Source of the DNA: an uncultured Candidatus Saccharibacteria bacterium
Lineage (GTDB): Bacteria; Patescibacteriota; Minisyncoccia; Phycocordibacterales; CAYSCM01
Length of the DNA: 64,000 bases
Assembly: GCA_964429815.1 (NCBI GenBank)
Contig: CAYSCM010000001.1
Span: forward strand, 64,001 to 128,000
Reading direction: 5' to 3'
In this document: positions 2,517-61,629 of the stretch, piece after piece
Layout: every line of letters begins with the position of its first letter
How positions within the stretch are numbered: position 1 is the stretch's first letter
The notes under the pieces: model-generated
Database searches by the model: none
The model's input: only the letters and a program-made list of their open reading frames with translations
Told to the model about the DNA's origin: nothing
Made by a program: the position numbers and the translations under genes

Positions 2517-4331
2517 TTAGGTTTTTATGGAAAATGCTTTCGCCCACAGCTGGAACACCAGGAGACTCCACAGGCTTTGGAGATGATATCCGCCTTGCTG
2601 GTGGTCCTTGCGAAGCCGTTCTATCTCATGCCAGTTAAAAAGGCTTTTTGTTTCGACGTAAAATGATGGAGAAAGTACCTCCCTGGCAAATGCTGCGACG
2701 TCGGGACGACGCAGCCACTTTGCGGCTGGAGAAAACCACCCCCTTTTTTCCTGGCTGAGGAGAAACTCCGGCACATGACCGCGGAGCGCCTCTTTGTAGA
2801 GTATTTTTTTATCAAACGACGAAATGAGATCGCTCTGGGATAATCGATCCGCGAAGGAAAGAAGCTCCAGGTCGAGGAGCGGCACGCGCACCTCAAGCCC
2901 CGCGGCCATCCCCATCTTATCGGTACGCAGTAGCGCCTCATCGACAAGCCAATTCTTTCTGTCGACGGCCATGAACTGTTTTTCAAATGACTTCTCTACC
3001 GTCGGGAATCTGTTGCTCAGATATTCGAGGACGGGCTCACTATTGTTGTCACCTTTTTCAAGAATCGCTTGCACAGTATCCTCCGTTTGCAACATGAACC
3101 ACGCGAAACGCTCTCCTCCCTCTTCTGTCGACAGGGGTTTTAGTTTTTTATTGAGCAACCCGAGCTTTGAAAATAGCGGAATGCGACGAAGTAAACTTAG
3201 CTGATGTGATTTGCGATAACGCTCATATCCACCAAAGAGTTCATCGCCCCCGTCACCTGCGAGAGCTACTGCAACCTGCGGTTTTGTGAATTCCGCAAGT
3301 TTGAGCATAGAAAGCGACGTCGGATTCCAGTTTGGATCATCGAGATGCCAAACCGCCTTTTCGAGATAGGGGATAACCTCTGTGGCGGAAAAGAGGACAC
3401 TATGATGTTCAACACCAAACTGTGCCGCAGCGCGCTTGGCAAGTTCAAGATCTGCATTGAATTTTTCTTTTTGCTCTCCCTCCTCAAGTTCAAACCCTAC
3501 GCTAAACGTTTTCAGTTTGTGTCCCGTCTCAAAGAGAGCTGCCAGGATAGCATTTGAATCTAGGCCTCCCGAAAGATAGAGCCCTACTGGGCGATCAGAA
3601 ACAAGTTGGCGACTTACGCCCCCCTTCAACACTTCCCATAGCTTGTGCGCGCGGTCTGTTCGGTCCGCTGGCAGGAAAATCTCTCTCTCATACGCTTGGT
3701 ATGTGCTAAGTGATATTTCGCCACGACGGTACTTGAGCACCTGACCTGGTTGAATACGAGATATGCTCTCAAACATTGTCGTGGGTCCTGGCGTATAGAG
3801 AAATCGGAAATAGAGATTGAGCGAATCGCGATTAAGTTTTCGAGTAATTCCCGTTTCGAGGAGCGCCTTGATCTCCGAAGAAAAAAAGAGCTCGTTATCC
3901 TTTTCTAGATAGTAAAGAGGCTTGATGCCGACCGGGTCGCGCACGAGATAGAGAGTTTCTTCTCTCTCGTCCCAGAGCGCAAAAGCAAACATGCCATTGA
4001 AACGTGAGAGGCAGTCAACTCCCCATCTCTCCCACGCCGCCAAGATAACTTCGGTATCGCTCTCGCTCCGAAAGGGGTAGGCCGGCAATTCTTTCTTGAT
4101 ATCGCGGTAGTTGTAGAGTTCTCCGTTGTAGGTAATGGTGAATCGCCCGTCGTGGCTTGCCATCGGCTGTTTGCCACCCTCGGAGAGGTCAATGATAGCG
4201 AGGCGATTGTGCCCCAAGGTTACTTTCCCAGCCCAAAGCCCCGTGCCGTCGGGGCCCCGGTGGTTGGTTTCTTTATTCATCCGCTCAACAAGAGCGGAGT
4301 GACTTCCCGTACATCCGTTAATGCCGCACAT
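2517..4331 (-). CDS. asnB: asparagine synthetase (glutamine-hydrolysing) family amidotransferase, WbpS-like sugar amidotransferase candidate
   Basis: 604 aa. N-terminal MCGI(NG) class-II glutamine amidotransferase nucleophile and the LSGGLDS PP-loop. It lies inside a glycosyltransferase operon and overlaps the next GT by 14 nt. Confidence 0.85.
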   Translation of the reverse strand: MCGINGCTGSHSALVERMNKETNHRGPDGTGLWAGKVTLGHNRLAIIDLSEGGKQPMASHDGRFTITYNGELYNYRDIKKELPAYPFRSESDTEVILAAWERWGVDCLSRFNGMFAFALWDEREETLYLVRDPVGIKPLYYLEKDNELFFSSEIKALLETGITRKLNRDSLNLYFRFLYTPGPTTMFESISRIQPGQVLKYRRGEISLSTYQAYEREIFLPADRTDRAHKLWEVLKGGVSRQLVSDRPVGLYLSGGLDSNAILAALFETGHKLKTFSVGFELEEGEQKEKFNADLELAKRAAAQFGVEHHSVLFSATEVIPYLEKAVWHLDDPNWNPTSLSMLKLAEFTKPQVAVALAGDGGDELFGGYERYRKSHQLSLLRRIPLFSKLGLLNKKLKPLSTEEGGERFAWFMLQTEDTVQAILEKGDNNSEPVLEYLSNRFPTVEKSFEKQFMAVDRKNWLVDEALLRTDKMGMAAGLEVRVPLLDLELLSFADRLSQSDLISSFDKKILYKEALRGHVPEFLLSQEKRGWFSPAAKWLRRPDVAAFAREVLSPSFYVETKSLFNWHEIERLRKDHQQGGYHLQSLWSLLVFQLWAKAFSIKT

Positions 4332-5373
4332 GTTCGATAAGTATAGTCGAAATCGTTTTTACGATGGCTTTGGTGCTGAAGCGCTCTCCCGCCACACGCG
4401 AGAGGTACGCTCCGATCTGGGGGCGGTCGACCGACTCGACGAGCGCACGTATTCGCTCCGCGAGCGCTATGGGGTCGCGTTCGGGAAAGGTGAGACGCGA
4501 GGCGTACTGCCCAAAGTATCCGCTAAACGCGACATTGCTCACGATGGGAGGTGTTCCCGCGGCCATGGATTCGATGACGGCTTTATCGAGGCCGCCGGGC
4601 GGGGTCATATTGACGGAAACGCTCGCCCGACAGTACCACACGGGAAGTCCCTCGTTGGGAATGGAGCCTATAAAACGGACGGTCTTCCCTAGTCCGCGTT
4701 CTTCGACGAGCCTGAGAAGCTTTTTTTCATATGCGCGATCGCTTTCGTGGACCGGAGCTCCAATGAACGTGACGCTGAACCTCTCCTTCCAGTGACGCTT
4801 TAAGATCTCTGCCGCCTCGATGAGCGTATCGCAGTTCTTGATGGGCGTGATACGCCCGACGCTTATGACGGCACGCTCCTCACGCGCAGAGCTCTCGCAG
4901 GCAAAGCGCCCCACCTCGATGCCATGCCCGAGAATGTGAAGTTTCCGCGACGGCAACCGAAAGCTGTAGCGCGATGCGGTTAAGACCGCGTGGCTGAAAA
5001 GATGCGCTACGTAGAGCTTGAGGTTCACCTGCCGATGCGTATACCATAATCCGACCCGCTTTCCCATAAGGCGCCAGGGTATGCCGCCCAAGACGACATA
5101 CTCGGGATTCATGTGAACGAGTACGACGTCGTACGGACGACGGATGGAAAAAATATATTGATAGAAACGCCACAGGTACGTGAGCCTCCCGGCACCTTCC
5201 TCCTTCCCCAGCGAGCGCACATGGACGTTCTCGGGTAGTGTAGCTCCTCCGCGTTCAAGACAGATGACCTCGACGGCCGTAAAGTGCCGTGCGAATTCCT
5301 GCAACCACGATATGACGTACGCTAGAAGATCGTCGTCTTCGTCAATTTTCTGGGTAATAAAGAGGAGTCGCAT
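4318..5373 (-). CDS. glycosyltransferase family 4
   Basis: 351 aa. GT-B C-terminal E-x7-E region (ESMAAGTPPIV). Confidence 0.75.
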   Translation of the reverse strand: MRLLFITQKIDEDDDLLAYVISWLQEFARHFTAVEVICLERGGATLPENVHVRSLGKEEGAGRLTYLWRFYQYIFSIRRPYDVVLVHMNPEYVVLGGIPWRLMGKRVGLWYTHRQVNLKLYVAHLFSHAVLTASRYSFRLPSRKLHILGHGIEVGRFACESSAREERAVISVGRITPIKNCDTLIEAAEILKRHWKERFSVTFIGAPVHESDRAYEKKLLRLVEERGLGKTVRFIGSIPNEGLPVWYCRASVSVNMTPPGGLDKAVIESMAAGTPPIVSNVAFSGYFGQYASRLTFPERDPIALAERIRALVESVDRPQIGAYLSRVAGERFSTKAIVKTISTILIEHVRH

Positions 5374-6478: not shown

Positions 6479-7611
6479 ACGTTTTTCTTCAAGAATTCCT
6501 CCACAGCCTCAACCATCTTCGCTTCAGAAAATTTGGCAAGCGAGCGCCTCCCTGCCGCGGAAAGTTTCCCCGCAAGTGAGCGCTCCCCGAGCACCCGGAG
6601 CATCGCGGTCTCCAGGGCTTTCCGATTGTTGTAGGGCACAAGAAGTCCGTTTTTGCCATCCTCGATGACTTCCGGGTTACCACCAACTTTGGTCGTCACG
6701 ATCGGAGTGCCGACGGCAAGGACTTCGAGAAGTTGGTGCGAGAGCCCTTCGTAGCCGGTATTGAGAACAAAAAGGTCCGCCGCTTTGATGTAGCGCAGGA
6801 GAACGTCGCGCTCGAGATTTCCTGCCAGAACGACATTCTCCTCGAGGCCTTTCGTTTCAATGAGCGTCTCAAGAGCTCCTCGCTGTGGCCCGTCCCCGGC
6901 AATCATGAGCTTCACGTTGGGGAATTTTTTACGTAGCGTCGGCACGGCCGAGATGAGGGTCTCAAAACCCTTCCAGGGTACGAGGCGCCCTGCGGACATG
7001 ACAAAAACCCCGTCGAACTGGAGTATCCCGCGCAGTACGTCGCGCCTCCCGGAGACCGCAATATCTTCAACGGCGCTTAAAATGACCTCGATTTTTTTTG
7101 CTTCGATCCCCCACTTCCCTATGACTTTCTTGAAATAGGCGCTCGGCACGATGATGCGCCGCGCCTTGCGGGCGACGTAGCGCTCGACGAAGACGAAGAG
7201 ACGGACAAGCGGGTGCGTTTGTCCCTGCTTTACGAAATCGTCGAGAAGTTCGGTGACACCGAATCGGTTCATGCCCTGCTCCCACGCGAAATCCCCCGCG
7301 ACGCGTAAGAGGAAGGTCTTTTTTCGAAACGAGGCGACGAGTGCAGCCGGGAACCCCACGGAAACGGGGTCGAGGGCGAGAATGGCGTCACAGCTCTCCG
7401 AGAGCTTCCACAGGAGGGCTAGGTACACGAGGTGGCGTACTCCGGGCGGAAACTTCCGGACCTTCCCAAAGTAGGCGACGGAAATTTCGATGCCGCGGCC
7501 GGGGAGGTGTGTGATGAGGCTTTTGGCAAAAGTAGCCGGCCCGCCGACATCAGGGGGGAGAAGCGGGGTCGCTAGCAAGAGCCGCATAGGAGTAGTATAA
7601 CGGCAAACCAT
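6475..7611 (-). CDS. glycosyltransferase family 4
   Basis: 378 aa. GRLVPWKG...EGLSHQLLEVLAVGTPIVTT motif. ATGA overlap with the downstream gene. Confidence 0.8.
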   Translation of the reverse strand: MVCRYTTPMRLLLATPLLPPDVGGPATFAKSLITHLPGRGIEISVAYFGKVRKFPPGVRHLVYLALLWKLSESCDAILALDPVSVGFPAALVASFRKKTFLLRVAGDFAWEQGMNRFGVTELLDDFVKQGQTHPLVRLFVFVERYVARKARRIIVPSAYFKKVIGKWGIEAKKIEVILSAVEDIAVSGRRDVLRGILQFDGVFVMSAGRLVPWKGFETLISAVPTLRKKFPNVKLMIAGDGPQRGALETLIETKGLEENVVLAGNLERDVLLRYIKAADLFVLNTGYEGLSHQLLEVLAVGTPIVTTKVGGNPEVIEDGKNGLLVPYNNRKALETAMLRVLGERSLAGKLSAAGRRSLAKFSEAKMVEAVEEFLKKNV

Positions 7612-7620
7612 GGCTCTCGG

Positions 7621-8829
7621 TCAGCGCGAAAGGAGCGGCATAAATACCCTTTCGCGCATACCGGCAGCGACGAGGCTCCAGTCATATTTTTCAAACACGA
7701 GCTTGCGAGCATACTTGACGACTCCCGAGACCTTCTCGGGACCGGCAAGAATATCTTCGACCGCCGCGACGATATCGCTCGGAGAGTCTTTATCGACGGC
7801 CCACCCGGTGGTCGGTTTGTCGGGGTTTCGTTTCGCATCAAACAGGAAGTCCGCAATGCCCCCTTCCTGGGTCCCAATGACGGGAATTCCTGCTGCCATA
7901 GCTTCGATGAATGAATTTCCCATGCCCTCCGAGCGGCTCGGGCGGATGAAAATATCGCACGCTTTGAGATACTTCGGCATCTCGTCATGAGAGAGCTGGC
8001 CGAGGAATTTCACCCGCCTCTCGACCCCAAGCTCCCGCGCAAGGGCCTTTAGTTTTATCTCGTCGGGCCCGACGCCAAAGACGACGAAATGGACACTCTG
8101 TGGAAGGCCGCGCTGTGCGCGTATGACGTCGTCGACAGCGTTTTTGTGGACAAGCCGGGAAGTCGTCACCAGAAAAACATCGCCCTCTTTCTTGCCGAGG
8201 AGCGTCTTCACCGTTTCCATCTCCTCGGGCGGATAGGAGGCCGAGAAACGTTTGGTATCAACGGCGTTCGGGATGATTTCAAGGCGCCCCTTGAAACCTC
8301 GTCGGCGCGCCCAGGAGCCTAAGAACGTGGAGATCGCTTGGATAGTGTCGGCCGTCGTGAAGGCGCGAGAAAAAAGTGGCCATACCGGGCGAGCCAGGCG
8401 TTCGATATGCTCCGGTGGATCACCTTCTTGGAGGGTGAGAATAAACGGGACCTTGGGGTGGAACCACTTGAAAAGCGCCGCGGGGATGCCACATGAGTGC
8501 GCCATCATTGCCCAGATAGCATCGAAGTGATACCTCCGGTGAAGCGAGAGGGCCTTCCAGGCCGCAAGAAACTGAAAGAGATGCTTATTGTAGTGGAGGG
8601 GAAATCGCTTAAGGTCTGCCATCGTGGGGTTCGGACGCGCAGGCCCAATGCGATGGACATACACATTTCCTATTTTTTCTTCCTTGGGAAGGGAGGAGTC
8701 GAATCTCAGGCACACCATGTGAAGTTCAATTTCAGATGTAGCAATGCGATCAGTAATTTCTTTGATAGCCACCTCTGCCCCGCCCACGTGCGGGTAATAG
8801 GTCAGGGAAAAAATGAGTATTCGTTTCAT
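7621..8829 (-). CDS. glycosyltransferase family 1/4
   Basis: ORF 7621..8880. Start placed at the internal MKRILIFSLTYYPHVGGAE (typical GT4 N-terminus), which abuts the stop of the upstream epimerase gene. SRSEGMGNSFIEAMAAGIPVIGT motif. Confidence 0.8.
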   Translation of the reverse strand: MKRILIFSLTYYPHVGGAEVAIKEITDRIATSEIELHMVCLRFDSSLPKEEKIGNVYVHRIGPARPNPTMADLKRFPLHYNKHLFQFLAAWKALSLHRRYHFDAIWAMMAHSCGIPAALFKWFHPKVPFILTLQEGDPPEHIERLARPVWPLFSRAFTTADTIQAISTFLGSWARRRGFKGRLEIIPNAVDTKRFSASYPPEEMETVKTLLGKKEGDVFLVTTSRLVHKNAVDDVIRAQRGLPQSVHFVVFGVGPDEIKLKALARELGVERRVKFLGQLSHDEMPKYLKACDIFIRPSRSEGMGNSFIEAMAAGIPVIGTQEGGIADFLFDAKRNPDKPTTGWAVDKDSPSDIVAAVEDILAGPEKVSGVVKYARKLVFEKYDWSLVAAGMRERVFMPLLSR

Positions 8830-9689
8830 GTGCGCCGCGCTTCCTTGATGTATTCCTCGACGGACTTGGTTATCTTCCACCCGATGGATTCCGACCTACT
8901 GGTATCGATCGCGGAGCTCATACGATTCCCTGCACGCTCGGGAAGCATTTTAATTTCAGTGCCAAACAGTTTCGCAATGTCGAGGATGGAATATTCACGC
9001 ACATCCCCCAAACCATAGTCATCGCCCTCCCCCCTTTCCCCAACAATCACAAGTCCCTCGACAATGTCGTGCACGTGGGTAAAGTTGCGTTTTTGGGTGC
9101 CGGGAGACACGACCGTAAGGGGTTCCCCCGCAAGATATTTTTGTCGGAAGATTTCTATGACCGTACCGTACGCCCCCGCACGTTCACGCGGCCCATACAC
9201 GTTGTAAAAATAGGTGATCGCGTACGGGACGCCAAACCACACGCCGTAGTTATGAACCAGGTCCGTATTGCTTGCCTTACACCACGCATAGGGGCTCTGG
9301 TGCCTCCCAAGCCCATCATCAGCAAATTTTGTGGACGATCCGGCGTAGACGAGTTTTGATCCACGGTTTCGACAGAACTCCACCACCCCAAATGTTCCAA
9401 GTACATTGAGGTCCCATACCAGTGAAGGCTCGTCAAAGCTCTTTTCGACACGGGAATACTCCCCGAGGTGATATACAACATCAGGTTTCTCCGGTATGTG
9501 CGTGTCGATATCTTTGGTATGCCCCTCGCGATAGGTGACTCCAGGGACGTGATTTTCCCTCGAGCCGGTGAAATAGTTATCGAGGGATATGACCTTATGC
9601 CCATCTTTCGCGAGACGTTCACATAAGTGTGAGCCTATGAAACCGGCTCCGCCGGTCACTAGGATGAGTTTTTGTATAGCCAAAGCCAT
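8826..9689 (-). CDS. NAD-dependent epimerase/dehydratase, UDP-glucuronate decarboxylase (UXS)-like short SDR
   Basis: 287 aa. LILVTGGAGFIGSHL Rossmann motif, DNYFTGS as in UXS, YAWCK catalytic YxxxK. Confidence 0.75.
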   Translation of the reverse strand: MALAIQKLILVTGGAGFIGSHLCERLAKDGHKVISLDNYFTGSRENHVPGVTYREGHTKDIDTHIPEKPDVVYHLGEYSRVEKSFDEPSLVWDLNVLGTFGVVEFCRNRGSKLVYAGSSTKFADDGLGRHQSPYAWCKASNTDLVHNYGVWFGVPYAITYFYNVYGPRERAGAYGTVIEIFRQKYLAGEPLTVVSPGTQKRNFTHVHDIVEGLVIVGERGEGDDYGLGDVREYSILDIAKLFGTEIKMLPERAGNRMSSAIDTSRSESIGWKITKSVEEYIKEARRT

Positions 9690-9718
9690 GGAAGTTAAGC
9701 CTACGGTAGCGATTCTCT

Positions 9719-10498
9719 TTATTCAATGATCTCGTACTCGGCCGCTTCGGCTGACACTGAAATGCTCGAGTCGTGTTTTCGGCGCGCAAGGTATACAGCG
9801 CCTGCGCCGAGCGCTAGCACGGTGCCGAGCGCGAGCCACCACAGGTACGGGGAGTGTTGTTCCTCCCCAGTAGCCACGAACCCCGGCTTCGGGGTCAGTG
9901 CGCTCTCTACAACGCCCGGGGGTGGCTCGAGGTTGGCGGGCTTTCGCGACGCTTTTTGTGTAATCACATTTGGGGAAGAAGGAGCGGTTTTTGCTGTCGG
10001 GATATCGGCTTGCGCGAGTGCCCGACCTGGAGAAGGTTTCGCGGCGATGAAGCCTCCGAGGGTGCGTGAGAGCGAAAGTCCGTCCCCTGCCGCGCCAAGC
10101 GCGTGTGTGTACGTGACCGAATCGAGCGTCGAGCTTCCGCTCAAAAGCGCGATTGTTTCGCCGGTATTCGAGAGCGAAAACGAGCTATCAAAAAGCGCCC
10201 CGGTGTAAGATGGGTTGTCGGCCAAAAATTTCGCCGGATCGGCGGCGATGACCGCATACACCCCCGAAGCCAGAACAGACGTACCGGACGCTTTGAGAGT
10301 GTGTCTGACTCCACCCTCGAGCAGCCTGAGGGTCGTAAGGTCGACGGGTCCGCCTCCCCCGTTGTATACCTCGATCCACTCGCGGCCATCATCGGCACCA
10401 GGGAGGTCATAGAGCACCTCGCTGATAGAGACCTGCGCGAAAAGCGGTAGTGGAGCGACGAGGAGCCCGATAAGCGCGCTAGTTCGAGTCATCAGCAA
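9719..10498 (-). CDS. secreted lamin-tail-domain (LTD) protein with C-terminal transmembrane anchor
   Basis: 259 aa. Signal peptide (LIGLLVAPLPLFAQ), LTD signature ISEVLYDLPG...REWIEVYN, Ser/Pro-rich linker, and C-terminal hydrophobic helix followed by ARRKHD. Overlaps the upstream ATPase gene by 20 nt. Confidence 0.7.
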   Translation of the reverse strand: MLMTRTSALIGLLVAPLPLFAQVSISEVLYDLPGADDGREWIEVYNGGGGPVDLTTLRLLEGGVRHTLKASGTSVLASGVYAVIAADPAKFLADNPSYTGALFDSSFSLSNTGETIALLSGSSTLDSVTYTHALGAAGDGLSLSRTLGGFIAAKPSPGRALAQADIPTAKTAPSSPNVITQKASRKPANLEPPPGVVESALTPKPGFVATGEEQHSPYLWWLALGTVLALGAGAVYLARRKHDSSISVSAEAAEYEIIE

Positions 10499-12260
10499 GC
10501 ATTTTTCGAAGCTCTTCGGGTGAGGGTTCGCCCGTATGCTGTTGTGTCGGAGTCGCTTCGTTGGTCAATTCTTTCGATGATTCCCCCTTTCGTTCCTCCT
10601 GGGCTCGAGCGCGCTCAGCCATAGCCTTTGCGAGTGCATCGCGCAGTGCATTGTTTTGTTTCGGAGTCTCCGGCTGCGCCTGCTCCCTTTTATCTTTCTT
10701 TTCGAGCTCTTTCCCGGCCACCTGGCGTAGCGTCTCGCGAAGTTTCGCAAGATGGTCTCCTGTCGACTGCTGCGGGCGAGAAGATATCTGTGAAGGAACT
10801 CCCGTGGAAGGAGGAGGTGCTCTTCTCTCCTCACGGCGGGTATCAGCTCCGCGCTCAGGGCGCGCTTCAGCATTACGATGTTCGCGGGGACGAGATCCCC
10901 CGTTGCGGTCTCGGGAGGAAACGCCCGCTCCGGCAGGAGCCGTCGATGGTCGCAGGGGTTCCACCGGTTCATGCCACTTGGCAATATCCCGCTCGACATC
11001 AGCACGTGGGCGAGCAAATTGCTGGCGCGACATCGCAAGGATTTCTTGCTTAAAGGAGCGCGTGGGTGCCTCAATTGGCGGAAGAGTTACGGCAGAAAAG
11101 GGCGGCGAGCCGACGCCGTCGATCATGAGTGAGAGGTATATCTGGCGAAGACCAAGGTTGACGATATCCTCTGCAGTAAATTTTGGCGCAAAAACTTTCT
11201 CCAGGAGCTCCGCATCGAGTGGACCCACTCGAAAGGCGATAGTGGTGCCAACGTTGCCAAACACCGCATCGCGCACCTCCTCTTCCATTTGTTCCACATA
11301 TTGATGTGCGATGGTGAGGGAGAGCCTATATTTGCGGGCCTCGGCAAGAATATCCGCAAAGGATGCATTCGCAAACGACTGAAACTCGTCTACGTAAAAA
11401 TAGAGACTGGGGAGTTTGGCCTGTGTTGCGGCGGAAGTATCTGCGCGGCTCATGGCGGCCAAATAGATGCGCGTGGTGAGCATAGAACCAAGAAGTGCTG
11501 TGTTTGTCTCCCCCACTAAGCCCTTGGAGAGATTCATGATGATGATTTTTTTCTCATCCATCAATTTACGCAAGTCAAAAGAAGATTTGGACTGTCCGAT
11601 GATGTTGCGAATAAGGGGGTTGGAGCTGTACTGCCCCACCTTGTTCTGAATTGCAGGGGTTGCTTCTGCTGCGAAGCGCTCAGTGTACTTGGCAAATTCA
11701 TTGACCCAAAACGCTTTCACTGATGGGTCGGAAATGTTAGCGACAACTCGATCTCGATAGGGTTTATCCGAGAGCATGCGGTTCACCGCAAGGAGCGTTG
11801 TGTCTGGATATTCCAAAAGTGCCAAGAGTGTATTGGTAAGGATGTATTCCATGCGGGCGCTCCAGGTGTCTGGGCCCCACACTTTTTTAAAGGCACTCAT
11901 AAGTCCCGAGGCGACGAAGTGTCTTCGCGCTGGACCCACATCTTCCATCACGTTGAAGGCCACCGGGTAGTCGGTATCAAACGGCGCGAAATAGAGCACG
12001 TCTTTCACACGCTCGGCCGGAATATAGTCGAGAAGTTTTTCAGCCGTGCCACCGTGCGGATCGATAAAGGCAAGTCCCTCACCATTCATAATGTCCTGGA
12101 TGGCCATGTTCTCGAGAAGAGTCGACTTACCCATGCCCGTTTTACCGATGACATAGACGTGCCGTGAGCGGTCTTTGGCTTTGATGCCAAAGGGGGTGCG
12201 CTTGCCGCGTGAGTCGGTAACAGCAAAATACGTTATCCTCTCGTCGGGATTCATCTTCAT
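10479..12260 (-). CDS. TraD/TraG/VirD4-family type-IV coupling-protein-like P-loop ATPase with ~180-aa disordered R/E/K/Q-rich C-terminal tail
   Basis: Walker A VIGKTGMGKST, DPHGG motif, Walker B-like LYFYVDEFQSF, and ...IAHQY. The ORF-track start (12305) is a GTG that lies inside a terminator hairpin, so the start was moved to the MKMNPDE ATG. Confidence 0.65.
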   Translation of the reverse strand: MKMNPDERITYFAVTDSRGKRTPFGIKAKDRSRHVYVIGKTGMGKSTLLENMAIQDIMNGEGLAFIDPHGGTAEKLLDYIPAERVKDVLYFAPFDTDYPVAFNVMEDVGPARRHFVASGLMSAFKKVWGPDTWSARMEYILTNTLLALLEYPDTTLLAVNRMLSDKPYRDRVVANISDPSVKAFWVNEFAKYTERFAAEATPAIQNKVGQYSSNPLIRNIIGQSKSSFDLRKLMDEKKIIIMNLSKGLVGETNTALLGSMLTTRIYLAAMSRADTSAATQAKLPSLYFYVDEFQSFANASFADILAEARKYRLSLTIAHQYVEQMEEEVRDAVFGNVGTTIAFRVGPLDAELLEKVFAPKFTAEDIVNLGLRQIYLSLMIDGVGSPPFSAVTLPPIEAPTRSFKQEILAMSRQQFARPRADVERDIAKWHEPVEPLRPSTAPAGAGVSSRDRNGGSRPREHRNAEARPERGADTRREERRAPPPSTGVPSQISSRPQQSTGDHLAKLRETLRQVAGKELEKKDKREQAQPETPKQNNALRDALAKAMAERARAQEERKGESSKELTNEATPTQQHTGEPSPEELRKMLADDSN

Positions 12261-12291
12261 GAGTATAGCAATTTTGCCGCCATCGCGATGC

Positions 12292-12320
12292 AAAAAGCCC
12301 CGCACTCTTTTGCGGGGCTT
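12292..12320 (-). terminator. rho-independent terminator (GCCCCGCAAAAGAGUGCGGGGC + UUUUUG) after the DUF1150-like gene
   Basis: An 8-bp GC stem plus a U-tract, read on the minus strand. Confidence 0.55.
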
Positions 12321-12338
12321 CCAGGTGTACGGCTTCGA

Positions 12339-12554
12339 TCAATGAACGCTGACCGGCTCGAGATCGTGGCTTTTCACGGCCTGGAACGCTGTGTCACGGT
12401 CGCTGATGATCGCGAGTTGGGTCCCGTCTGCCGCGTGGACGGAGAATGCGCGCTCACCATTTTCAACGACCGGCTTGATGTAGGCCACCCTATTTAGCAT
12501 CCACACCTGCCACTCAGCCTGCGTCAGGGGCCTGTAGATGGTGTCGGTTTTCAT
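12339..12554 (-). CDS. small conserved protein, DUF1150-like
   Basis: 71 aa. ...AYIKPV...AFSVHAADGTQLAIISDRDTAFQAVKSHDLEPVSVH resembles the DUF1150 family by recall. It is co-directional in the operon and followed by a terminator. Confidence 0.5.
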   Translation of the reverse strand: MKTDTIYRPLTQAEWQVWMLNRVAYIKPVVENGERAFSVHAADGTQLAIISDRDTAFQAVKSHDLEPVSVH

Positions 12555-12619
12555 GGCACACCTCGTCGTCGCTACCTTCAGTAGACCAGATATCCGATTT
12601 CACGCAATTGCGTTACGCA

Positions 12620-13975
12620 CTACTGTGCCGCTGTCGTCGAAGCCGCTGGTTCACGCGCCAACACCGTGCGCAAGCTCGTGTACTTGTTCGCGGCATCCCA
12701 GATGAGGTACGAGTTCAGGCCGGAGTCGAGGTTTGCTTGTATCTGCTCCTTCACCATGTCAGGCGTGTAGGTGACGGGGTAGTCAAACGATTGGAGCCAG
12801 GGGCGAATGATGGAAGCGGGATAGGCCGGCTTTGAGTACAGACCGCTCGCCAATTCCCTGGTCGTCGTGGGAGTCGTCGTCCCCGCCACTTCCACGGTTT
12901 TCATGATGGGCGTGTAGGCCATCGAAAAGAGCTCGGTGGTGGTCGCCATCGCCCGTGCGACTGCCGAGTCGAGAGAGACTCTAACCACCTTGTACGGGTC
13001 CGAGTTGACGTTTTTAAGTCCAACAAAGCCGCTGTTGTAGTGGGAAGGGTAGACCATTGGGTCTATGAAGTCGAAGTAGGGCATCGCGCGCTCGAGAACC
13101 TGTCCGATACCGAGGTCGTCGACGTGGACCGTCACATAGCCGAAGAGATCGGCGGACATAACGGCGCCGATCTGCTTTACGTGAGCGTGCAAATATTGGA
13201 AAAACTCCTCGAGCGCCTGCGCCTTGGTCTTCCCCTCGTCGAGCATATAAACCGCATCCGCCATAGGACCATCCGAGGGGAAGCGAATGTAATCGAAGTT
13301 AAGCTCGTCGAAGCCCATCTCCTCGTACGAGACTTTGCTCAGTTCGACGATGTAGTCCCAAAACGGTTTCGCGCCGACGTCGACAAACGAGAGTCCTCCA
13401 TAGTTTTTCCAAATCCCTCCCTTTTTGCTTTGCACCGCGAGATCGGGATGCTCCTTCGTGTAGGTGGGGTCTTGGAAGACAGTAATGCGGCCGATGACGT
13501 AAATGCCCTTGTCGTGCAGGTTTTTAACGAACGACTTCATGTCGGCCGCACCGCACGCTTTCGAGACATTATCCCGGAGGAGTGAGCTATCGGTCGGAAA
13601 GGCGATGCCGCCGGAGTAGTCCTTTATGTCAATGACGATTGCGTTGAGTTCGGTCCTGTCGATGAGCCCCAGAAGGTCTTTGCGGAACGAGGGCGTACCC
13701 GCCGCGCACTGGCTCATGTAGATGGCCTTCACGGGGTCCGGGGTCGGCACATGGGTGATCGAGGGGTGTTGCACGATGGTGGTCGTGGCCGCCGAGGTCG
13801 AGCTGGCGAGCGTGGCATTGTGATAAGACGTTTCAATAGCGGCCGGAATGCCGAAAAAGGCCGCCGCGGCCACGCCGGAGAGAAGAAGCCCAAGATAGGC
13901 TCCCCGGATAAGCCCCAAGGGCTGTTTTTTAGGAGCGCGCATCGACGCCAGGGCGTTCACGCATCGCGCTGTCAC
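12620..13975 (-). CDS. membrane-anchored putative glycoside hydrolase (DUF4015/GH-like TIM barrel)
   Basis: 451 aa. N-terminal TM anchor, Thr/Ser-rich linker, then an NAIVIDIKD...YIRFPSDG pattern typical of the PF13200-type putative glycosyl hydrolase. The alternative start MRAPKK is at 13942. Confidence 0.55.
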   Translation of the reverse strand: MTARCVNALASMRAPKKQPLGLIRGAYLGLLLSGVAAAAFFGIPAAIETSYHNATLASSTSAATTTIVQHPSITHVPTPDPVKAIYMSQCAAGTPSFRKDLLGLIDRTELNAIVIDIKDYSGGIAFPTDSSLLRDNVSKACGAADMKSFVKNLHDKGIYVIGRITVFQDPTYTKEHPDLAVQSKKGGIWKNYGGLSFVDVGAKPFWDYIVELSKVSYEEMGFDELNFDYIRFPSDGPMADAVYMLDEGKTKAQALEEFFQYLHAHVKQIGAVMSADLFGYVTVHVDDLGIGQVLERAMPYFDFIDPMVYPSHYNSGFVGLKNVNSDPYKVVRVSLDSAVARAMATTTELFSMAYTPIMKTVEVAGTTTPTTTRELASGLYSKPAYPASIIRPWLQSFDYPVTYTPDMVKEQIQANLDSGLNSYLIWDAANKYTSLRTVLAREPAASTTAAQ

Positions 13976-14129
13976 GACTGCGTCCCTCCTGCCGCAAGGC
14001 GAACGCGAGGGCGGCTACCAGTAATCCGAAGAGCACGTAGAGCGGGGTCTTCCAGGGGGTCGGAACGCCCACGAACGGCAAGAGAGCGACGAGGAGAGCG
14101 AACAGAATGATGGTGGCATGTTTGGACAT
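13929..14129 (-). CDS. small 2-TM membrane protein (hypothetical)
   Basis: Internal start MSKHATIILFALLVALLPFVG... of ORF 13929..14192. Overlaps the start of the downstream gene. No clear SD. Confidence 0.3.
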   Translation of the reverse strand: MSKHATIILFALLVALLPFVGVPTPWKTPLYVLFGLLVAALAFALRQEGRSRDSAMRERPGVDARS

Positions 14130-14243
14130 GCGCACAGTATACCCTATAAGCACTGACCTAAGCGGGAACGAAGGTTCATTCCTGCATTTCACCCAAACCA
14201 GAGGGTCTTGAAGGGTCTGGAGGGGTTAGTGCTTGGGTATACC

Positions 14244-39182: not shown

Positions 39183-42100
39183 TTAGTTCGAACGAGCCTG
39201 AATCAACCCCGCAGACGGAAGTCCCGGAATTGAGTAGCCGTTGCTGAAGTCGACCGTACCATTGGTTCCATCCCAGAGGCTTGCGGTCGTTGTCGAGTTG
39301 CCTGCCCAGACAAAGTTGCTTGAGCTTGTGGCAATTCCTGACGTTGCGACCTGGAAGCCGGAGGTGAGGTTCGTTTGGTAGGCCGTATCGCTCTTGAGGG
39401 TCGTGACTGCCGAGTAGGTTGTTGCCGTACCCGTCACCGTACCACGAAGCTCAAAGTAGTAGGTCTGGCCCGACGGGACCTGAACAGCGTTCGGGGTCGG
39501 CTGGAAGACCTGCGTCGCGCCTTGCGTAGGCGTTGCGATCGTTGCTCCAACTTGGCCGCCGGTGCCCTGACCAGAGATGGCCTGCGAGTACGAGCTGTCC
39601 GTGAAGCCGTAGAGCGATACGTTCGAGATGTTCATCGAGGTCGTCGCGAACGAGAAGGCGAACTTCGCAACTCCGACAGGTCCTGCGCTGTTAGCCGTCA
39701 CTTTGAATCGCATGAGACGACCGTCCGCTACACCTGACGATGGGAGACTGTCGAGCGAGAGCGTTGGGTAGCTCTTGAAGAAGCGCACCCCAGCGGTCGT
39801 GCTTGAGCCGCTACCCTTGACCGTCTGGCCAGAGGAAGCGCCGGTGCCTTCGAAGCTGCTCGGGTCGACCTCAATGAGATCGCCGACGCCGGTCGGTGCG
39901 CTTACGCTGATGCCGGCGATGTCCGCTTTGATGGTGAGCGGAATGTCGGTATCGCGAGTCACCGTGAAGGGCGAGATGAGCGTCGACGTCGCAATGGTGT
40001 TGGCGCCCGTGAGGGTTGCCGTACCAAGGAGCGTCGAACCGCTGTAGATGTAGAGCTGGGTTAGGTCACCCGCGGCAGTCGACGTGTTACCTGCACCAGT
40101 CTTGCCGAGCGAGCTTGCAGCTGCCGTAAGGCCGAGCTTGATGAGGTTAAACGATTCGTTAGCTGAGCGGATGCGGAATACGCCGACCGTAACGCCCGTC
40201 GTACCAGCCGCATTGATTGCGTAGGATGGCGAGGATGGGTCTACGTTGAGCGTAACCGAGGCGCTCGAGGACACTGTGAGCGTACCGCTGTTTCCGGTGG
40301 TCGGAAGGACGGTAAGCGAGTTGCCCGACTGAACACCCGTGTAGGTGATCGTGTCGCCGGAGTTTACACCGAAGATGTAGGTTGTGGCAGCAGTCGCGGC
40401 GCTCGAGAGATTGCACTGGAGCCCGAGGGTCTTGACCGTTCCCTTCGCAATGGTGATCGCATTGTCGAGGGTAATGGTGTTGGCGCCCGCAGCGACCGTG
40501 TTGAGCGTGTTGCTTCCCGTGTTAAGGGGAGTTGCTCCGTCAAAGAGCTGACAACCGCTGAGGTTTCCTACGGCGCCGGTGCCGCTCTCCCTCACCACAA
40601 GCGAGGAAAGGCGGACGTCTTCCGACGAGCTCGCTGCGTCAAGCTGAATGTTGCTGAAGAGCACATTCTGGCTTCCCGCAACGACGTTTTGCGATGCCGG
40701 GGTAGCAGCCGCGGTTACACCGAGGGCTAGCGTACGAACCGTCATCGTGTTCATCGTGAAGTTGGTCGTCGAGATCGTGATCGAGTTACCCGTTACCTGG
40801 CCCGTTGGGCTCGTCCAACTCGACGGAGTCGTGTTGAGGACAACGGTAGAGCCGCTCGGCCATCCCGTCGAAGGGATTTTACCTTTGAGGGTGTAGGTGC
40901 GCGAGCCAACCGGGAAGGTTACCGAGCTCGTGAAGTTGACGATCGAAGCGGACGCATCTACCGGACCAGCAACGACTGCGCCGTTTTGGTCAACGATCGA
41001 CACGCTGGTGATTTCGCTCACTGACGTCGTACCAGTGGAGGTGACGTTGAACTTCATGCCGGAGACCGTAACTGGCTCGCCTGCGAAGTTCGTGACGAAC
41101 CCGCCGAGAACCGTATTGGGGACGTTAACCGGAATGTTCTGTGAAGCGACCGAGGTTGCATTCTGGATGGTCGTCACCGTACCTGCGTTGATCGTTACCG
41201 TTGAGCCTTGGAAGACTGGCTGACCGCTGGTGTAGGTCGTCGCGTGCGTTGAAGCCGTCGAGACCGTACCAGAACCCGCTGCCATCGCAACGCCGTAGCC
41301 ATAGAGCTGGCCCACGAAGTAGACATCCGAGGTCTTGTCGACGTCGAACTCGGCGATGCGACCGGCAGAGTTGTTGCCTGTGAGGTCGCCCTGGAGGACA
41401 ACATCAATCGAGAAGCCCTTCTGAACGAGGATACCGCCCGGGAAGGACGAGGTCACATAGCGTCCGTCAGCAGAGACTACCGTCGGGTAGTTTGTGCCGT
41501 TGATTACCGCGACAAGGTTGCCGACATCGCTTATCGAAGCAGAACCGTTGATGCGGAAGCGGATGGAGAAGAGTTTGAGATCTTCTGCTGAACCCGCGGT
41601 GAAGCGAACGCCTGTGAAGCGAACAGCGGTTGCGCCGATGTTCTTGGTAGTGGCCGCGTTCGGGTCAAGCGAAGAAATCGCTGTCGTGACCGAACCGAGG
41701 CTGAGGGTTCCGTTGACCGTATTTGCCGCACCCGTGATCGGGAGAGCACCTGAAACCGTGGCAGTAGTGTTAACTGCGACTACGGAGATCGCGGCTACTT
41801 GACCGGCATAGCTGCCGAGGCTTGAGCCCATGTTACCCGCAATCGTGTAGTTCGACGTTCCGGCCGGGACCGTAAAGGTTCCGCCGACCGTCGCATTGTG
41901 ATTGCTGTCGAAGGTCTGGGTGTTGCCGATCTGGAGACCGTTGCTGTCGACAAGTACGACGCTTGCAAAGGCCGCATCAGCTGCGAGTCCTGTGCGCTGG
42001 ACCGTGACACCGTTTACGGTGACCGGAGCGCCGCTGTTGTTCGTGATCGTGAAGTTCGTGAATGGAACACGCACTGCGCTCGTTGGCGCCAGCGAGTTCG

Positions 42101-42704: not shown

Positions 42705-43406
42705 AACGTAATGGTTACTGTTAATGCCCGTGTGAACGGGCGATTCGCGAGACTCACAGGAGTCGACCCCATGAAGCGCGCGAGGAGTGACCTTTGCATG
42801 AAGTGCTTTCGGCACTCGGTCACGGTTGATAATCACTTTTGTACTATTTCCCTACCCCCGTGGTATCGACCCGGAAGCTAGAGAACTAGTGGCGAAGAGA
42901 GGTGGTTGTTCTGTATGTATTCAGCCGAGGAGGAATAAAGAGTTGCGGTAAACTGAAGCACGAGGGCAGAGCCCTCATTTTTTGAAGAAACGAGTTTTTC
43001 GGTATATGAAATTGTCAACGTCCTTCCGTGCACCCCGGTTCATTTTCCTCAAAAGTTCTGAAATAACTCAGTTAATTCCAAGAAAAACACACTCCCAGAG
43101 CTCCGCCTATTATAGACGCGCTACTTTTGCGCATCAAAACGGACAATGTGGATAACTAACGCCAAAAAAGCCCACAGATTGGTCTTTTTTGGCCGTTTTC
43201 CACGCAGCGCGGAGCATACACAAGAAGACGGCACCGGTCAATGAACATTTCCTCTAAAAAATGGCGCAATACTTGGATACGATGTCAATTTTTAGGCAGG
43301 TTTAGGTTCCTTTGAGAGCTTAAGGCCTTCGGGGACCCTAAAGGGTGGAAGGAGGGGCGCACAAGGTGAAAATGTGGCAACTTAAAAATGTGATAACTCT
43401 GGTAAC

Positions 43407-44346: not shown

Positions 44347-46518
44347 GTGCCCACCATGGCTCGGAAGGAGAAAAAACCTCGATTTTGGTCGTCTTTTTCC
44401 ACTCTTCCGAGCGAAACGAAACGGGGTGTCGTTGCAGTCCTCCTTTTTGCCGCGACTGCTCTATGCATTCTTGCGGCTAACAACATGGCCGGTATCGGCG
44501 GTCGCGCTCTTTATAGCGGTATAAGCTATCTTTTTGGGCTCGGTTACTACCTTGTACCCATACTTACGCTCACGCTTGGCGTTATCTTGGTGCGTCCCCT
44601 GGAGCGGGAAGTCGGCCTCCTCAAAATCGCCGGAGCGCTTCTCCTCTTCTTTTCCGCGCTTGGCCTCGTCGACACCGTCGCTAAAAGCCGTGGTGGAGAG
44701 GTAGGAAACCTCATATCATCTCCGCTACAAGACCTCTTCGATCTTCCGGCTACCGTAGCGATCCTCGTAACGCTTCTTCTGATATCCTTCTTCATCCTTT
44801 TTGAGCTTAAATTCATCCTGCGAATGCCTGGCTGGCTTGCGACCGTCAGACTATTCAGGCGGAAGAGCGAAGACATCGATGAACCGGCCATAACGAGTTA
44901 TCAGGACGGCGAAGAGGAAGATGTCGAAGAAGACGAGGAAGAGCTTAATGAGGACGAAGAGGAGGACGAGGTGGAACCGAGAATCACCAAATCTCCCTTG
45001 GTTCCTGACTCCCCTGCCCCCGCCGGTTTTCGCTCTCGCATGCGCGGTGCATATATTCCTCCGCCACTGTCTCTTTTTGAACGTGACAAGGGTAAGCCTG
45101 GTGTTGGCGACATCAAAGCAAACGCAAACATAATCAAGCGTACCTTCCAGAACTTCGGTATCAGCGTTGAAATGGACGAGGTCTCCATCGGACCGACGGT
45201 CACTCGCTACGCGCTAAAACCCGCCGAGGGTGTGCGCCTCAGTAAGATCGTTTCGCTCCAGAACAACCTTGAGCTCGCCCTCGCCGCTCATCCGGTGCGC
45301 ATCGAAGCGCCCATTCCTGGAAAGTCGCTTGTTGGCATCGAAGTACCGAACTCGACGAAAGCTACCGTCGGCTTCGCGACACTCCTTTCTTCGACGGAAT
45401 TTACCTCGTCGGATAAGCCGCTTCTCCTTGCACTCGGCCGCGATATCGCTGGCTCCCCCATCCTCGCTAACTTGGCTAAAATGCCTCACGCTCTTATCGC
45501 GGGAGCCACCGGCTCGGGCAAGTCCGTGACTATCCATGCGCTCATAAATTCATTGCTCTATAGAAATTCCCCCGAGCAACTCCGGTTCATCATGATCGAT
45601 CCCAAGCGCGTCGAGCTCACTCTCTACAACAACATCCCCCACCTTCTCACCCCCGTCATCACTGATCCGAAAAAGACCATTCTCGCCCTCAAATGGGCCG
45701 GAAAAGAAATGGAGCGGCGCTACAACATTCTTGAAGCCGAGGGTGCGCGCGACATAGACTCCTACCACAAAAACGTCCTCGCGCCTGCCCTCGAAAAAAC
45801 CCATGGAAATGACGATGCTCCGGTCGAGACCATGCCCTACATCATCGTCATCATCGATGAACTCGCCGATATCATGCAGACCTACCCGCGCGAACTTGAA
45901 GCCGCGGTCGTGCGTCTCGCCCAGATGAGCCGCGCGGTCGGTATTCACCTCATTCTCTCCACGCAGCGACCGTCGGTGAACGTCATCACGGGCCTCATTA
46001 AGGCGAACGTTCCGGCCCGCATCGCACTTCAAGTCGCCTCCCAGATCGACTCGCGCACCATTCTCGACGGCTCCGGTGCGGAAAAGCTCCTCGGCGCAGG
46101 AGACATGCTCTATCTCTCCGGCGATATGGGCAAGCCGGTACGCCTCCAGGCTCCCTATCTCTCGGAGTCCGAGGTGAAAAAGGTCGCCAAGTATCTCAAG
46201 GACAACTATGCGGACCTTATCTCGGACGAAATACAATTTAGCGATGAAAGTAAGGGCGTTGGCCTCTCCCCCGCGTTCGAAGATGAGGAGATAGACGACG
46301 ACATGTATCAAGAGGCAAAACAAATCGTCGAAGAAGCCGGCAAGGCTTCGACGAGCTACCTTCAGCGCAAGCTTCGTATCGGCTACTCTCGCGCCGCACG
46401 CATCATGGACATACTCGAAGAGCGCGGCGTCATCGGGCCTGCGGACGGAAGCAAGCCGCGCGAAGTGCTCGGCGCTTCCGGAAGCAAAGAGGGTGAAGAG
46501 GGTGGCGAAGACGTATGA
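44347..46518 (+). CDS. ftsK: DNA translocase FtsK/SpoIIIE
   Basis: 723 aa. 4 N-terminal TM helices, acidic linker, motor domain with Walker A IAGATGSGKS and IIDELADIM Walker B, and C-terminal gamma domain (YLQRKLRIGYSRAARIMDILEERGVIG). Confidence 0.95.
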   Translation: MPTMARKEKKPRFWSSFSTLPSETKRGVVAVLLFAATALCILAANNMAGIGGRALYSGISYLFGLGYYLVPILTLTLGVILVRPLEREVGLLKIAGALLLFFSALGLVDTVAKSRGGEVGNLISSPLQDLFDLPATVAILVTLLLISFFILFELKFILRMPGWLATVRLFRRKSEDIDEPAITSYQDGEEEDVEEDEEELNEDEEEDEVEPRITKSPLVPDSPAPAGFRSRMRGAYIPPPLSLFERDKGKPGVGDIKANANIIKRTFQNFGISVEMDEVSIGPTVTRYALKPAEGVRLSKIVSLQNNLELALAAHPVRIEAPIPGKSLVGIEVPNSTKATVGFATLLSSTEFTSSDKPLLLALGRDIAGSPILANLAKMPHALIAGATGSGKSVTIHALINSLLYRNSPEQLRFIMIDPKRVELTLYNNIPHLLTPVITDPKKTILALKWAGKEMERRYNILEAEGARDIDSYHKNVLAPALEKTHGNDDAPVETMPYIIVIIDELADIMQTYPRELEAAVVRLAQMSRAVGIHLILSTQRPSVNVITGLIKANVPARIALQVASQIDSRTILDGSGAEKLLGAGDMLYLSGDMGKPVRLQAPYLSESEVKKVAKYLKDNYADLISDEIQFSDESKGVGLSPAFEDEEIDDDMYQEAKQIVEEAGKASTSYLQRKLRIGYSRAARIMDILEERGVIGPADGSKPREVLGASGSKEGEEGGEDV

Positions 46519-57386: not shown

Positions 57387-57407
57387 TTCAAACAGTATAT
57401 CGCGATT

Positions 57408-61545: not shown

Positions 61546-61552
61546 TCTAGCC

Positions 61553-61585
61553 GCAATACGTGAAAGAAAAAAGCCGCCCCAGGGG
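61553..61585 (-). terminator. intrinsic terminator/attenuator (GCCGCCGCACCCCUGGGGCGGC + U6) 8-30 nt upstream of the ileS start codon
   Basis: 9-bp GC stem plus U-tract on the minus strand, directly after the small upstream ORF. Confidence 0.6.
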
Positions 61586-61629
61586 TGCGGCGGCTTGCGG
61601 GCCGACACTAGGGTGCCGGCCCGGGGACT

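Follow-up and report, generated by a model that had tools for sequence, protein, structure and literature searches.

A soluble coupling-protein-like ATPase and its anchored lamin-tail neighbor: a possible DNA-handling pair in the candidate phyla radiation

The window analyzed here, a 64,000-nucleotide stretch of contig CAYSCM010000001.1 from an uncultured Candidatus Saccharibacteria bacterium, encodes a soluble ATPase with the fold of the type IV coupling proteins (TrwB/VirD4) and, overlapping the end of the ATPase gene, a surface protein with a lamin-tail domain (LTD) that is held in the membrane by its C-terminus. We think it possible, and say so tentatively, that the two make up a motor that is tethered to the membrane and captures DNA or takes it up. 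Several things, taken together, lead us to tethering and to a role with extracellular nucleic acid: a coupling-protein fold without its usual anchor, the coupling of the two genes, the exchange of the LTD in sister species for the helix-hairpin-helix (HhH) domain of the competence receptor ComEA, a short motif in the partner's cytoplasmic tail, and the helices in the tail of the ATPase. Coordinates are collected in Table 1.

Three coupling-protein models in Pfam match the ATPase, each just over its curated cut-off: TrwB_AAD_bind (30.3 bits, cut-off 20.5), T4SS-DNA_transf (29.5 bits, cut-off 20.1) and TraG-D_C (27.1 bits, cut-off 22). Models of the neighboring families stay below theirs: DUF87/HerA scores 22.3 bits where 23.2 is needed, and FtsK_SpoIIIE 13.9 bits where 24 is. 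The AlphaFold models (predicted local distance difference test, pLDDT, 81.6 for residues 1–415 and 79.5 for the full-length protein) show a RecA-like nucleotide-binding domain with an all-alpha domain inserted at about residues 113–235. When this fold is compared by Foldseek with the Protein Data Bank, TrwB, DotL and Cagβ come first (TrwB with E ~1e-7 and a TM-score of up to 0.61). By hidden Markov model (HMM) and by fold alike, then, the enzyme is nearer to coupling proteins than to HerA or FtsK, as the original prediction, made from the sequence by eye, had proposed in calling it VirD4/TraD-like. It is presumably hexameric. Two features that define coupling proteins are, nonetheless, missing: the N-terminal membrane domain and the linkage to secretion genes. 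The N-terminus extends only 38 residues ahead of Walker A, and no membrane segment is present anywhere in the protein, the maximum 19-residue Kyte-Doolittle hydropathy being 1.09. Among the genes scanned within ±10 kb of the ATPase there is no VirB4, VirB6 or relaxase, just as first noted; what is there is glycan genes, RsmI, a C39-like peptidase, two tRNAs and SecDF. Nor are there secretion genes among those scanned in the whole 64-kb window, or among those identified beside the ATPase in related loci.

Other identities were considered for the enzyme and set aside. It is not the cell's FtsK, for a complete, canonical FtsK is encoded elsewhere in the window (44347..46518). It is not a HerA: the HMM score is below the cut-off, and in Foldseek both HerA and VirB4 structures rank behind the coupling proteins. 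And it is not a defense ATPase of the MADS/HerA type: in PADLOC mad8 scores just 52 bits and no HerA model exceeds 24 bits, the partner genes are not seen, and neither PADLOC, for four neighboring proteins, nor Pfam, for the surrounding genes, returns any defense hit.

Beyond the folded core the ATPase continues in a tail of about 160 residues, which the original prediction had judged to be of low complexity and disordered. Composition bears this out (R 13%, E 12%, A 12%, P 9%) and so does pLDDT, which lies at ~44 between three short helices and at 70–82 inside them. The tails of 79 homologues range in length from 120 to 425 aa, with biased composition, and despite this variation all of them keep an 'LKxALxxV' helix and a terminal helix of the 'PE[ED]xLRxxL' type. 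The core is strikingly well conserved. Its median identity across 80 Paceibacteria species representatives is 73%, and the medians in the same loci are 64% for the epimerase, 56% for RsmI, 50% for the GT4 glycosyltransferase and 46% for the DUF4015 protein. More than 8,000 database proteins match the ATPase; the best 120 are 73–100% identical to it, and every named organism among those 120 belongs to the Paceibacteria/Parcubacteria. Below E = 1e-30 the family amounts to 5,661 clusters at 50% identity. The ATPase is, in short, a core and slowly evolving gene of the Paceibacteria, unlinked to type IV secretion genes.

The partner is a secreted, C-terminally anchored LTD protein, and here, too, the first description stands. 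The LTD matches PF00932 with 49.8 bits (cut-off 34.3, E = 4.9e-13), over model positions 6–108 of 109. Ahead of it lies a Sec-type signal peptide (…APLPLFA–QVS), with its hydropathy peak at residues 7–26, and behind it, near the end of the protein, a single hydrophobic anchor segment with a hydropathy of 1.76. The C-terminus reads …YLA-RRKHDSSISVSAEAAEYEIIE, and by the positive-inside rule these last 21 residues should be cytoplasmic. The protein contains no HhH by Pfam or NCBIfam (judged by ComEA TIGR00426 and HHH_3), and no sequence relative was found for it among solved structures. An LPXTG/sortase type of anchor was considered and rejected, Gram_pos_anchor scoring 14.3 against a cut-off of 20 and the LAETG models falling far below theirs.

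The two genes overlap. From the most likely start of the LTD gene, ATG 10492, the overlap is 14 nt; the 20 nt of the original prediction is correct for a TTG start at 10498. In the closest relative, whose ATPase is 89% identical, the LTD orthologue is 267 aa long and the overlap is again 14 nt. Overlaps of start and stop such as these are typical of translational coupling, and we take the two genes to be coupled in this way. The arrangement recurs. We compared 80 genome loci from species representatives and two metagenome relatives, 82 in all; they share a backbone RsmI … ATPase … epimerase–GT4, while the inserts to either side of the ATPase vary. The slot downstream of the ATPase can be read in the 78 loci in which the end of the ATPase is intact: one gene intervenes in 55 of them, and in 20 the ATPase runs directly into the epimerase or GT4. 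Most of the intervening genes begin very close to the ATPase stop codon (33 of 40 measured, within -52..+21 nt). Pfam finds an LTD in 41 of the 55 proteins and a ComEA-type HHH_3 in 12; local iterated HMMs raise these numbers to 47 and 13. An anchored LTD and/or ComEA-HhH protein is thus encoded directly downstream in 51 of the 78 loci, 47 with an LTD and four more that are of the ComEA type without one. The pairing on which the original prediction hinged is real, therefore, and recurrent in relatives, but it is not obligatory.

The partner proteins share a common architecture: signal peptide, N-terminal module, optional PKD and second LTD, and C-terminal membrane helix. The N-terminal module is an LTD in 32 loci, a ComEA-HhH in 13 and something else in six, and both minimal forms exist, signal-peptide–LTD–anchor (the type found in the window) and signal-peptide–HhH–anchor. 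The HhH domains of the 13 sister species score 56–69 bits against TIGR00426, for which the ComEA cut-off is 53.1. Of the 56 proteins that were scanned (the window's own and the 55 intervening ones), 38–39 have PKD domains; these and the Ig-like domains also found are typical of surface-layer proteins. Searching in the other direction, with the LTD domain as query, produced 80 metagenome loci, 59 of them with at least 1 kb of sequence upstream. The ATPase lies directly upstream in 31 of the 59 and does not in 28. These 28 homologues are mostly of other architectures, among them very large surface proteins and proteins whose C-termini differ.

Further indications of a connection between the two proteins come from their C-termini. 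An acidic-aromatic motif (DEFEIVE, EEFTIE or EWDIVEE, for example) ends 22 of 27 distinct ATPase-adjacent LTD homologues and two of 23 non-adjacent ones (Fisher 1.8e-7, the counts being uncorrected for shared ancestry). Across 1.28 Mb of related loci, with 5,249 open reading frames (ORFs), a stricter form of the pattern picks out 15, each of them the gene directly downstream of the ATPase. The end of the ATPase varies, in turn, with the way in which its partner is anchored; three classes of terminal motif can be distinguished, although the counts ignore kinship. The 'LRxMLxV[DE]' class goes with an acidic-aromatic partner tail in 19 of 23 loci, the 'LERMMRV' class with a short basic partner tail in eight of 11, and the '[FY]EVPExxL' class either with a membrane helix at the partner's extreme C-terminus (13 loci) or with no partner at all (14).

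A second class of partner deserves separate mention. In 11 loci (L019, L022, L024, L030, L031, L041, L044, L052, L059, L060 and L074) the C-terminus reads 'SPW[TF]LG[FL]LGV…GGAFILL', with the helix at the very end, and these partners always stand beside an ATPase of the '[FY]EVPExxL' tail class. The ending resembles a signal for processing or sorting more than it does a simple anchor.

How might such a pair work? The soluble ATPase would dock at the membrane on the partner's cytoplasmic peptide, which would stand in for the N-terminal anchor of the classical coupling proteins, and the partner's ectodomain would capture extracellular nucleic acid. The ATPase could then power or gate the movement of DNA across the membrane, with uptake the more likely direction and with ComEC, or another channel encoded apart from the pair, as the probable route; the helices of its tail might recruit further partners. 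A DNA-related role gains support from the 13 species in which the same slot holds a ComEA HhH protein, and the ComEA domain there suggests a DNA-handling device that is independent of any secretion system. The original prediction had offered a stand-alone module, possibly for DNA uptake. No type IV secretion genes nearby and ComEA-HhH proteins in the slot keep that idea alive, but the DUF4015 and DUF1150 proteins that it had included in the module are not part of it. Three predictions follow: the LTD ectodomain binds DNA, the acidic-aromatic peptide binds the ATPase, and the three tail helices recruit partners. To generalize—to claim for the Paceibacteria, and perhaps for the candidate phyla radiation (CPR) as a whole, a secretion-system-independent DNA translocator in which a soluble motor is tethered by the tail peptide of an LTD/ComEA-HhH receptor—is to go a good deal further, and we consider that unlikely. 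Were it so, the LTD protein would be the 'alternative DNA-binding mechanism' postulated for the ~70% of CPR genomes without an annotated ComEA, and the ATPase would be the functional counterpart of ComFA.

A number of observations weigh against a DNA-capture motor. Not every locus has the pair: the slot lacks a partner gene in 20 of 78, and 28 of 59 LTD homologues occur elsewhere. Synteny with the glycan genes is at least as well conserved as the pairing with the LTD gene. Since the partner has a far narrower distribution than the ATPase family, the core function of the ATPase cannot depend on it. The tail motif was defined post hoc, and neither the motif statistics nor those of the co-variation are corrected for phylogeny. 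No ComEC or other competence gene is present among the window ORFs scanned, a subset of all. Loss of the LTD from the nuclease ExeM slowed its activity in vitro, but the domain was dispensable in vivo for degradation of extracellular DNA (PMC6085458). And in Southlakia, a genetically tractable CPR bacterium, deletion of comEC abolishes competence but leaves viability unaffected (PMC12857230). In a transposon screen, moreover, a Southlakia coupling-protein homologue, not necessarily the orthologue of the window ATPase, was reported to be non-essential, and the secretion system essential (PMC12102498). With comEC and this homologue both non-essential, DNA scavenging is weakened, not excluded, as the explanation for the strong constraint on the ATPase.

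Relatives of the ATPase outside the Paceibacteria have other surroundings. In those of Gracilibacteria and Peregrinibacteria, ~50% identical, the ATPase core is preceded by a fused DUF8128 domain (PF26449) and an N-terminal membrane helix. In the three such loci examined (L083–L085, e.g. 7001-9727) the setting is a fixed one of housekeeping genes, in the order IleRS–SecG–L9–RuvX–ATPase–SSB or PGK; the ATPase is kept, the glycan synteny is lost, and secretion genes are absent from all three. Planctomycetota, Desulfobacterota and Nitrospirota have tail-less relatives of 440 aa, 54% identical to the window ATPase and ~70% identical among themselves. In five of five loci (L167-L171) these are divergently paired with a conserved protein of 111–132 aa and a Cas4-like PDDEXK_1 nuclease. 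They sit in defense or mobile-element islands, among serine recombinases, restriction-modification systems, Hachiman, TIR proteins, toxin-antitoxin systems and a diversity-generating retroelement, and the three genes may constitute a mobile or defense module that has not been described before. The window and the CPR loci contain no homologue of either the Cas4-like nuclease or its small companion. Across the branches of the family the recurrent neighbors are nucleic-acid-related, the exception being the glycan synteny of the Paceibacteria.

Such a distribution is in keeping with another view, that gene order is all that joins the two proteins in the window: that the ATPase is a cytoplasmic housekeeping enzyme for nucleic acids, with a supporting role in, for instance, repair, replication or segregation, and the LTD or ComEA protein an unrelated and variable envelope protein that merely fills a permissive slot ahead of the glycan operon. 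The branches differ in their neighbors, RuvX and SSB in one and the Cas4-like nuclease in another; the backbone from RsmI to GT4 persists with variable inserts on either side of the ATPase; and the ATPase is near-universal in the CPR (PMC12102498), whereas the partner is missing from a quarter of the slots (20 of 78). Against this view stand the start/stop overlaps typical of translational coupling, a cytoplasmic tail motif nearly exclusive to ATPase-adjacent copies, and an ATPase tail class that co-varies with the anchor class of the partner. We regard this account as somewhat unlikely, though as the strongest of the rivals.

Orphan coupling-protein homologues in CPR bacteria are not new; they were reported in 2025 (Quiñonero-Coronel et al., Microb Genom; PMC12102498). 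VirD4-type homologues were found in 2,918 of 3,035 Patescibacteria genomes (96%), in 5,713 copies, only 148 of which lie near virB4, and VirB4 in 2,417 of the 3,035. The window ATPase belongs almost certainly to the same class of genes as these orphan 't4cp' homologues, for which the authors wrote that exaptation 'cannot be ruled out'. Their text, as far as we found, describes neither the soluble architecture, nor the tail motifs, the LTD/ComEA partner, its cytoplasmic motif or the synteny, and in the literature that we found the surface partner, its tail motif and the tail motifs of the ATPase are undescribed.

These numbers bear on a further possibility, that the ATPase is a true coupling protein after all, acting in trans for a type IV secretion system encoded elsewhere on the chromosome, at a virB4 cluster, with the surface protein an adhesin or accessory for contact with the host. 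The fold and the HMMs are those of coupling proteins, and the disordered C-terminal extension with its terminal peptide resembles that of TraD, whose C-terminal extension bears a terminal recognition peptide. Coupling-protein genes are often distant from virB4, VirB4 itself is common in the CPR (PMC12102498), and in one Saccharibacterium the secretion system is essential (PMC12102498, PMC12857230). Against this, the ATPase has no N-terminal membrane domain, its sequence is conserved far above the norm for coupling proteins, and no secretion genes appear either among the scanned genes of the window or among those identified beside the ATPase in relatives. Its homologues, furthermore, are in more genomes (2,918) than VirB4 is (2,417), and the one homologue screened was non-essential where the secretion system proved essential (PMC12102498). 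We consider a role in trans unlikely.

The locus comprises two transcription units where the original prediction saw one. That prediction placed the ATPase and LTD genes in a four-gene operon with the DUF4015 and DUF1150 genes upstream, and its identification of these last two was correct (DUF4015: 289 bits, E = 5e-86; DUF1150: 54.4 bits against a cut-off of 25, E = 1.4e-14, with model positions 34–76 alone covered; the NCBIfam relative of the DUF1150 gene, the BQ00720 family, scores 30 bits, under its cut-off of 80). It was also right that the DUF1150 gene ends at an intrinsic terminator: reading and folding of the sequence give a 12-bp stem, a UUUUU run, -26.3 kcal/mol and z = -2.8 at 12322..12292, a site that an automatic scan for promoters and terminators did not pick up. 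With this terminator and a separate promoter ahead of the ATPase gene, there are two units rather than a single operon: unit 1 is 66-aa membrane protein–DUF4015–DUF1150–terminator, and unit 2 is promoter–ATPase–LTD–epimerase–glycosyltransferases. It is the separate 66-aa membrane protein, and not the DUF4015 gene, that starts at position 14129. Comparison with relatives speaks against the four-gene operon as well. DUF1150 occurs in none of the 82 related loci; and in the 56 that have enough upstream flank, DUF4015 is directly upstream of the ATPase in 19, farther upstream in eight and missing from that side in 29. All three genes of unit 1 are bystanders to the ATPase. The closest relative reads RsmI–small membrane protein–DUF4015–ATPase–LTD–epimerase–GT4, without DUF1150. 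Among the 82 loci, the DUF1150 gene with its own terminator is seen in the window genome alone, as if it had recently been inserted between DUF4015 and the ATPase.

The terminator also settles where the ATPase does not begin. The GTG start at 12305 given by the ORF list would have the reading frame run through the terminator, and so is spurious; the true start is ATG 12260 (593 aa, identical to database protein P0001) or ATG 12254 (591 aa). Just ahead of both is the -10-like box TATACT (12267..12262), likely the promoter of a leaderless or near-leaderless ATPase transcript. The pattern TATACT-N5-8-ATG occurs five times in the window, where 0.49 occurrences are expected, and every one is at an ORF start. 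All five sites are on the - strand: 4329-4345 (AsnB), 7585-7599 (GT4), 12252-12267 (ATPase), 14127-14141 (the 66-aa protein) and 57384-57399 (DUF11). The GT4 site implies a start at 7587 rather than at 7611. Leaderless or very short-leader transcripts, this suggests, are widespread in the window genome.

Table 1. Positions of the ATPase, its partner and neighboring features in the window, with two loci from relatives
Feature	Position	Strand	Basis or remark
ATPase, coupling-protein-like, 593 aa	10479..12260	-	Pfam, NCBIfam, identical database protein P0001; ORF list: 10479..12305
Folded core of ATPase, residues 1–430	10971..12260	-	AlphaFold models
Walker A GKTGMGKST, residues 39–47	12120..12146	-	invariant in 56 homologues
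Walker B YFYVDEF, residues 287–293	11382..11402	-	invariant in 56 homologues
Disordered C-terminal tail, ~residues 431–593 (~160 aa)	10482..10970	-	AlphaFold pLDDT, composition
Tail helix 1, residues 500–524	10689..10763	-	AlphaFold
Tail helix 2, residues 537–558, NALRDALAKAMAE	10587..10652	-	AlphaFold
Tail helix 3, residues 581–592, PEELRKMLADD	10485..10520	-	AlphaFold
LTD surface protein, 257 aa from ATG 10492	9719..10492	-	ORF list: TTG start 10498
Lamin-tail domain, residues 21–131	10106..10438	-	PF00932
C-terminal membrane anchor YLWWLALGTVLALGAGAVYLA, then RRK	9785..9847	-	hydropathy 1.76
21-aa cytoplasmic tail ending AEYEIIE	9722..9784	-	C-terminal motif comparison
TATACT, -10-like box	12262..12267	-	1 nt before ATG 12260, 7 nt before ATG 12254
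Intrinsic terminator after DUF1150	12292..12322	-	upstream boundary of ATPase unit
DUF1150 protein, 71 aa	12339..12554	-	Pfam E = 1.4e-14; not part of ATPase unit
DUF4015 protein, membrane-anchored	12620..13942	-	Pfam E = 5e-86; not part of ATPase unit
66-aa membrane protein	13929..14129	-	not part of ATPase unit
NAD-dependent epimerase/dehydratase	8826..9689	-	Pfam; 29 nt after LTD stop
GT4 glycosyltransferase	7621..8880	-	Pfam
Tail-less ATPase loci of relatives, examples	L168 5725-8329, L171 5611-8196		

Downstream of the LTD gene, the epimerase and GT4 genes open a glycan-synthesis cluster that extends down to ~252 and includes the epimerase, five GT4s, AsnB and a GDP-mannose dehydratase, co-directional and tightly packed behind the ATPase. 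The epimerase and GT4 genes are probably on the ATPase transcript, and the synteny is conserved: in nearly all of the 80 species, one or both follow the ATPase, whether or not a gene for a surface protein intervenes. From the ATPase at the head of this cluster, from that adjacency, from DUF4015, a putative glycoside hydrolase, so often upstream, and from the surface-layer character of the partner's PKD and Ig-like domains, one could argue that the ATPase and the anchored protein serve the glycan operon, in the export, anchoring or quality control of an S-layer-like glycoprotein or polysaccharide. We know, however, of no member of the HerA/FtsK/coupling-protein superfamily that acts on glycans. 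The cluster is split by internal TATACT–ATG promoters, relatives of the ATPase in other lineages have DNA-related rather than glycan neighbors, and the ComEA-type variants of the partner point to DNA. A service to the glycan operon strikes us as improbable.

Three other proteins of the window may be noted in passing. One (58000-61608, - strand) is a class I aminoacyl-tRNA synthetase of 1,202 aa, IleRS-like, with Anticodon_1 and DUF5915, in which a histidine-phosphatase domain (His_Phos_1, residues 542–700, 4.9e-29) is situated between the catalytic halves; the IleRS of the Gracilibacteria-type loci described above is 1,040–1,098 aa long and has no His_Phos_1 match listed. The others are a protein of 1,217 aa (39183-42836, - strand), with PG_binding_1 as its sole recognizable domain, and a DUF11 protein of 621 aa (55521-57386, - strand). 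Neither of these two large proteins has any further annotation, and both probably belong to the envelope.

Why should this pair matter? CPR bacteria are unable to synthesize nucleotides and are thought to scavenge DNA, yet most of them have no recognizable DNA receptor. Nearly all of them also encode, at a distance from any secretion system, a coupling-protein-like ATPase that has yet to be explained. The locus described here connects both open points. Should the link prove wrong, the ATPase still ranks, in a very large lineage of bacteria, with the best-conserved proteins that have no known function.

Among known systems, motors of the VirB4/VirD4/HerA class have precedents in DNA uptake in ComB of Helicobacter and Ced of Crenarchaeota. 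Both encode dedicated membrane channel subunits alongside, whereas none are seen at the window locus, and the NCBIfam CedD match over the P-loop of the ATPase (E = 1.2e-4) is far below the cut-off. The LTD nucleases ExeM of Shewanella and Xds of Vibrio begin, like the window LTD protein, with a signal peptide followed by an LTD (PMC6085458), but the window protein has no nuclease domain. The competence receptor ComEA offers another comparison: 13 of 78 sister species encode a secreted, anchored HhH protein in the partner slot, and the window protein shares with it the layout of signal peptide, ectodomain and anchor. It differs from ComEA in carrying an LTD, the DNA binding of which is putative here, rather than an HhH, and in having a C-terminal anchor with a conserved cytoplasmic peptide; and no comEC or comEB adjoins the window locus. 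To the type IV coupling proteins (TrwB of R388, VirD4, TraD/TraG, DotL and Cagβ), finally, the ATPase is alike in its RecA-like domain with all-alpha insertion and in its Walker A and B motifs. It is only ~15% identical to those that have been solved, however, and has neither their N-terminal membrane domain nor linked secretion or relaxase genes. It is a core chromosomal gene product, ~73% identical across a bacterial class, and is coupled instead to a surface protein that is anchored in the membrane.

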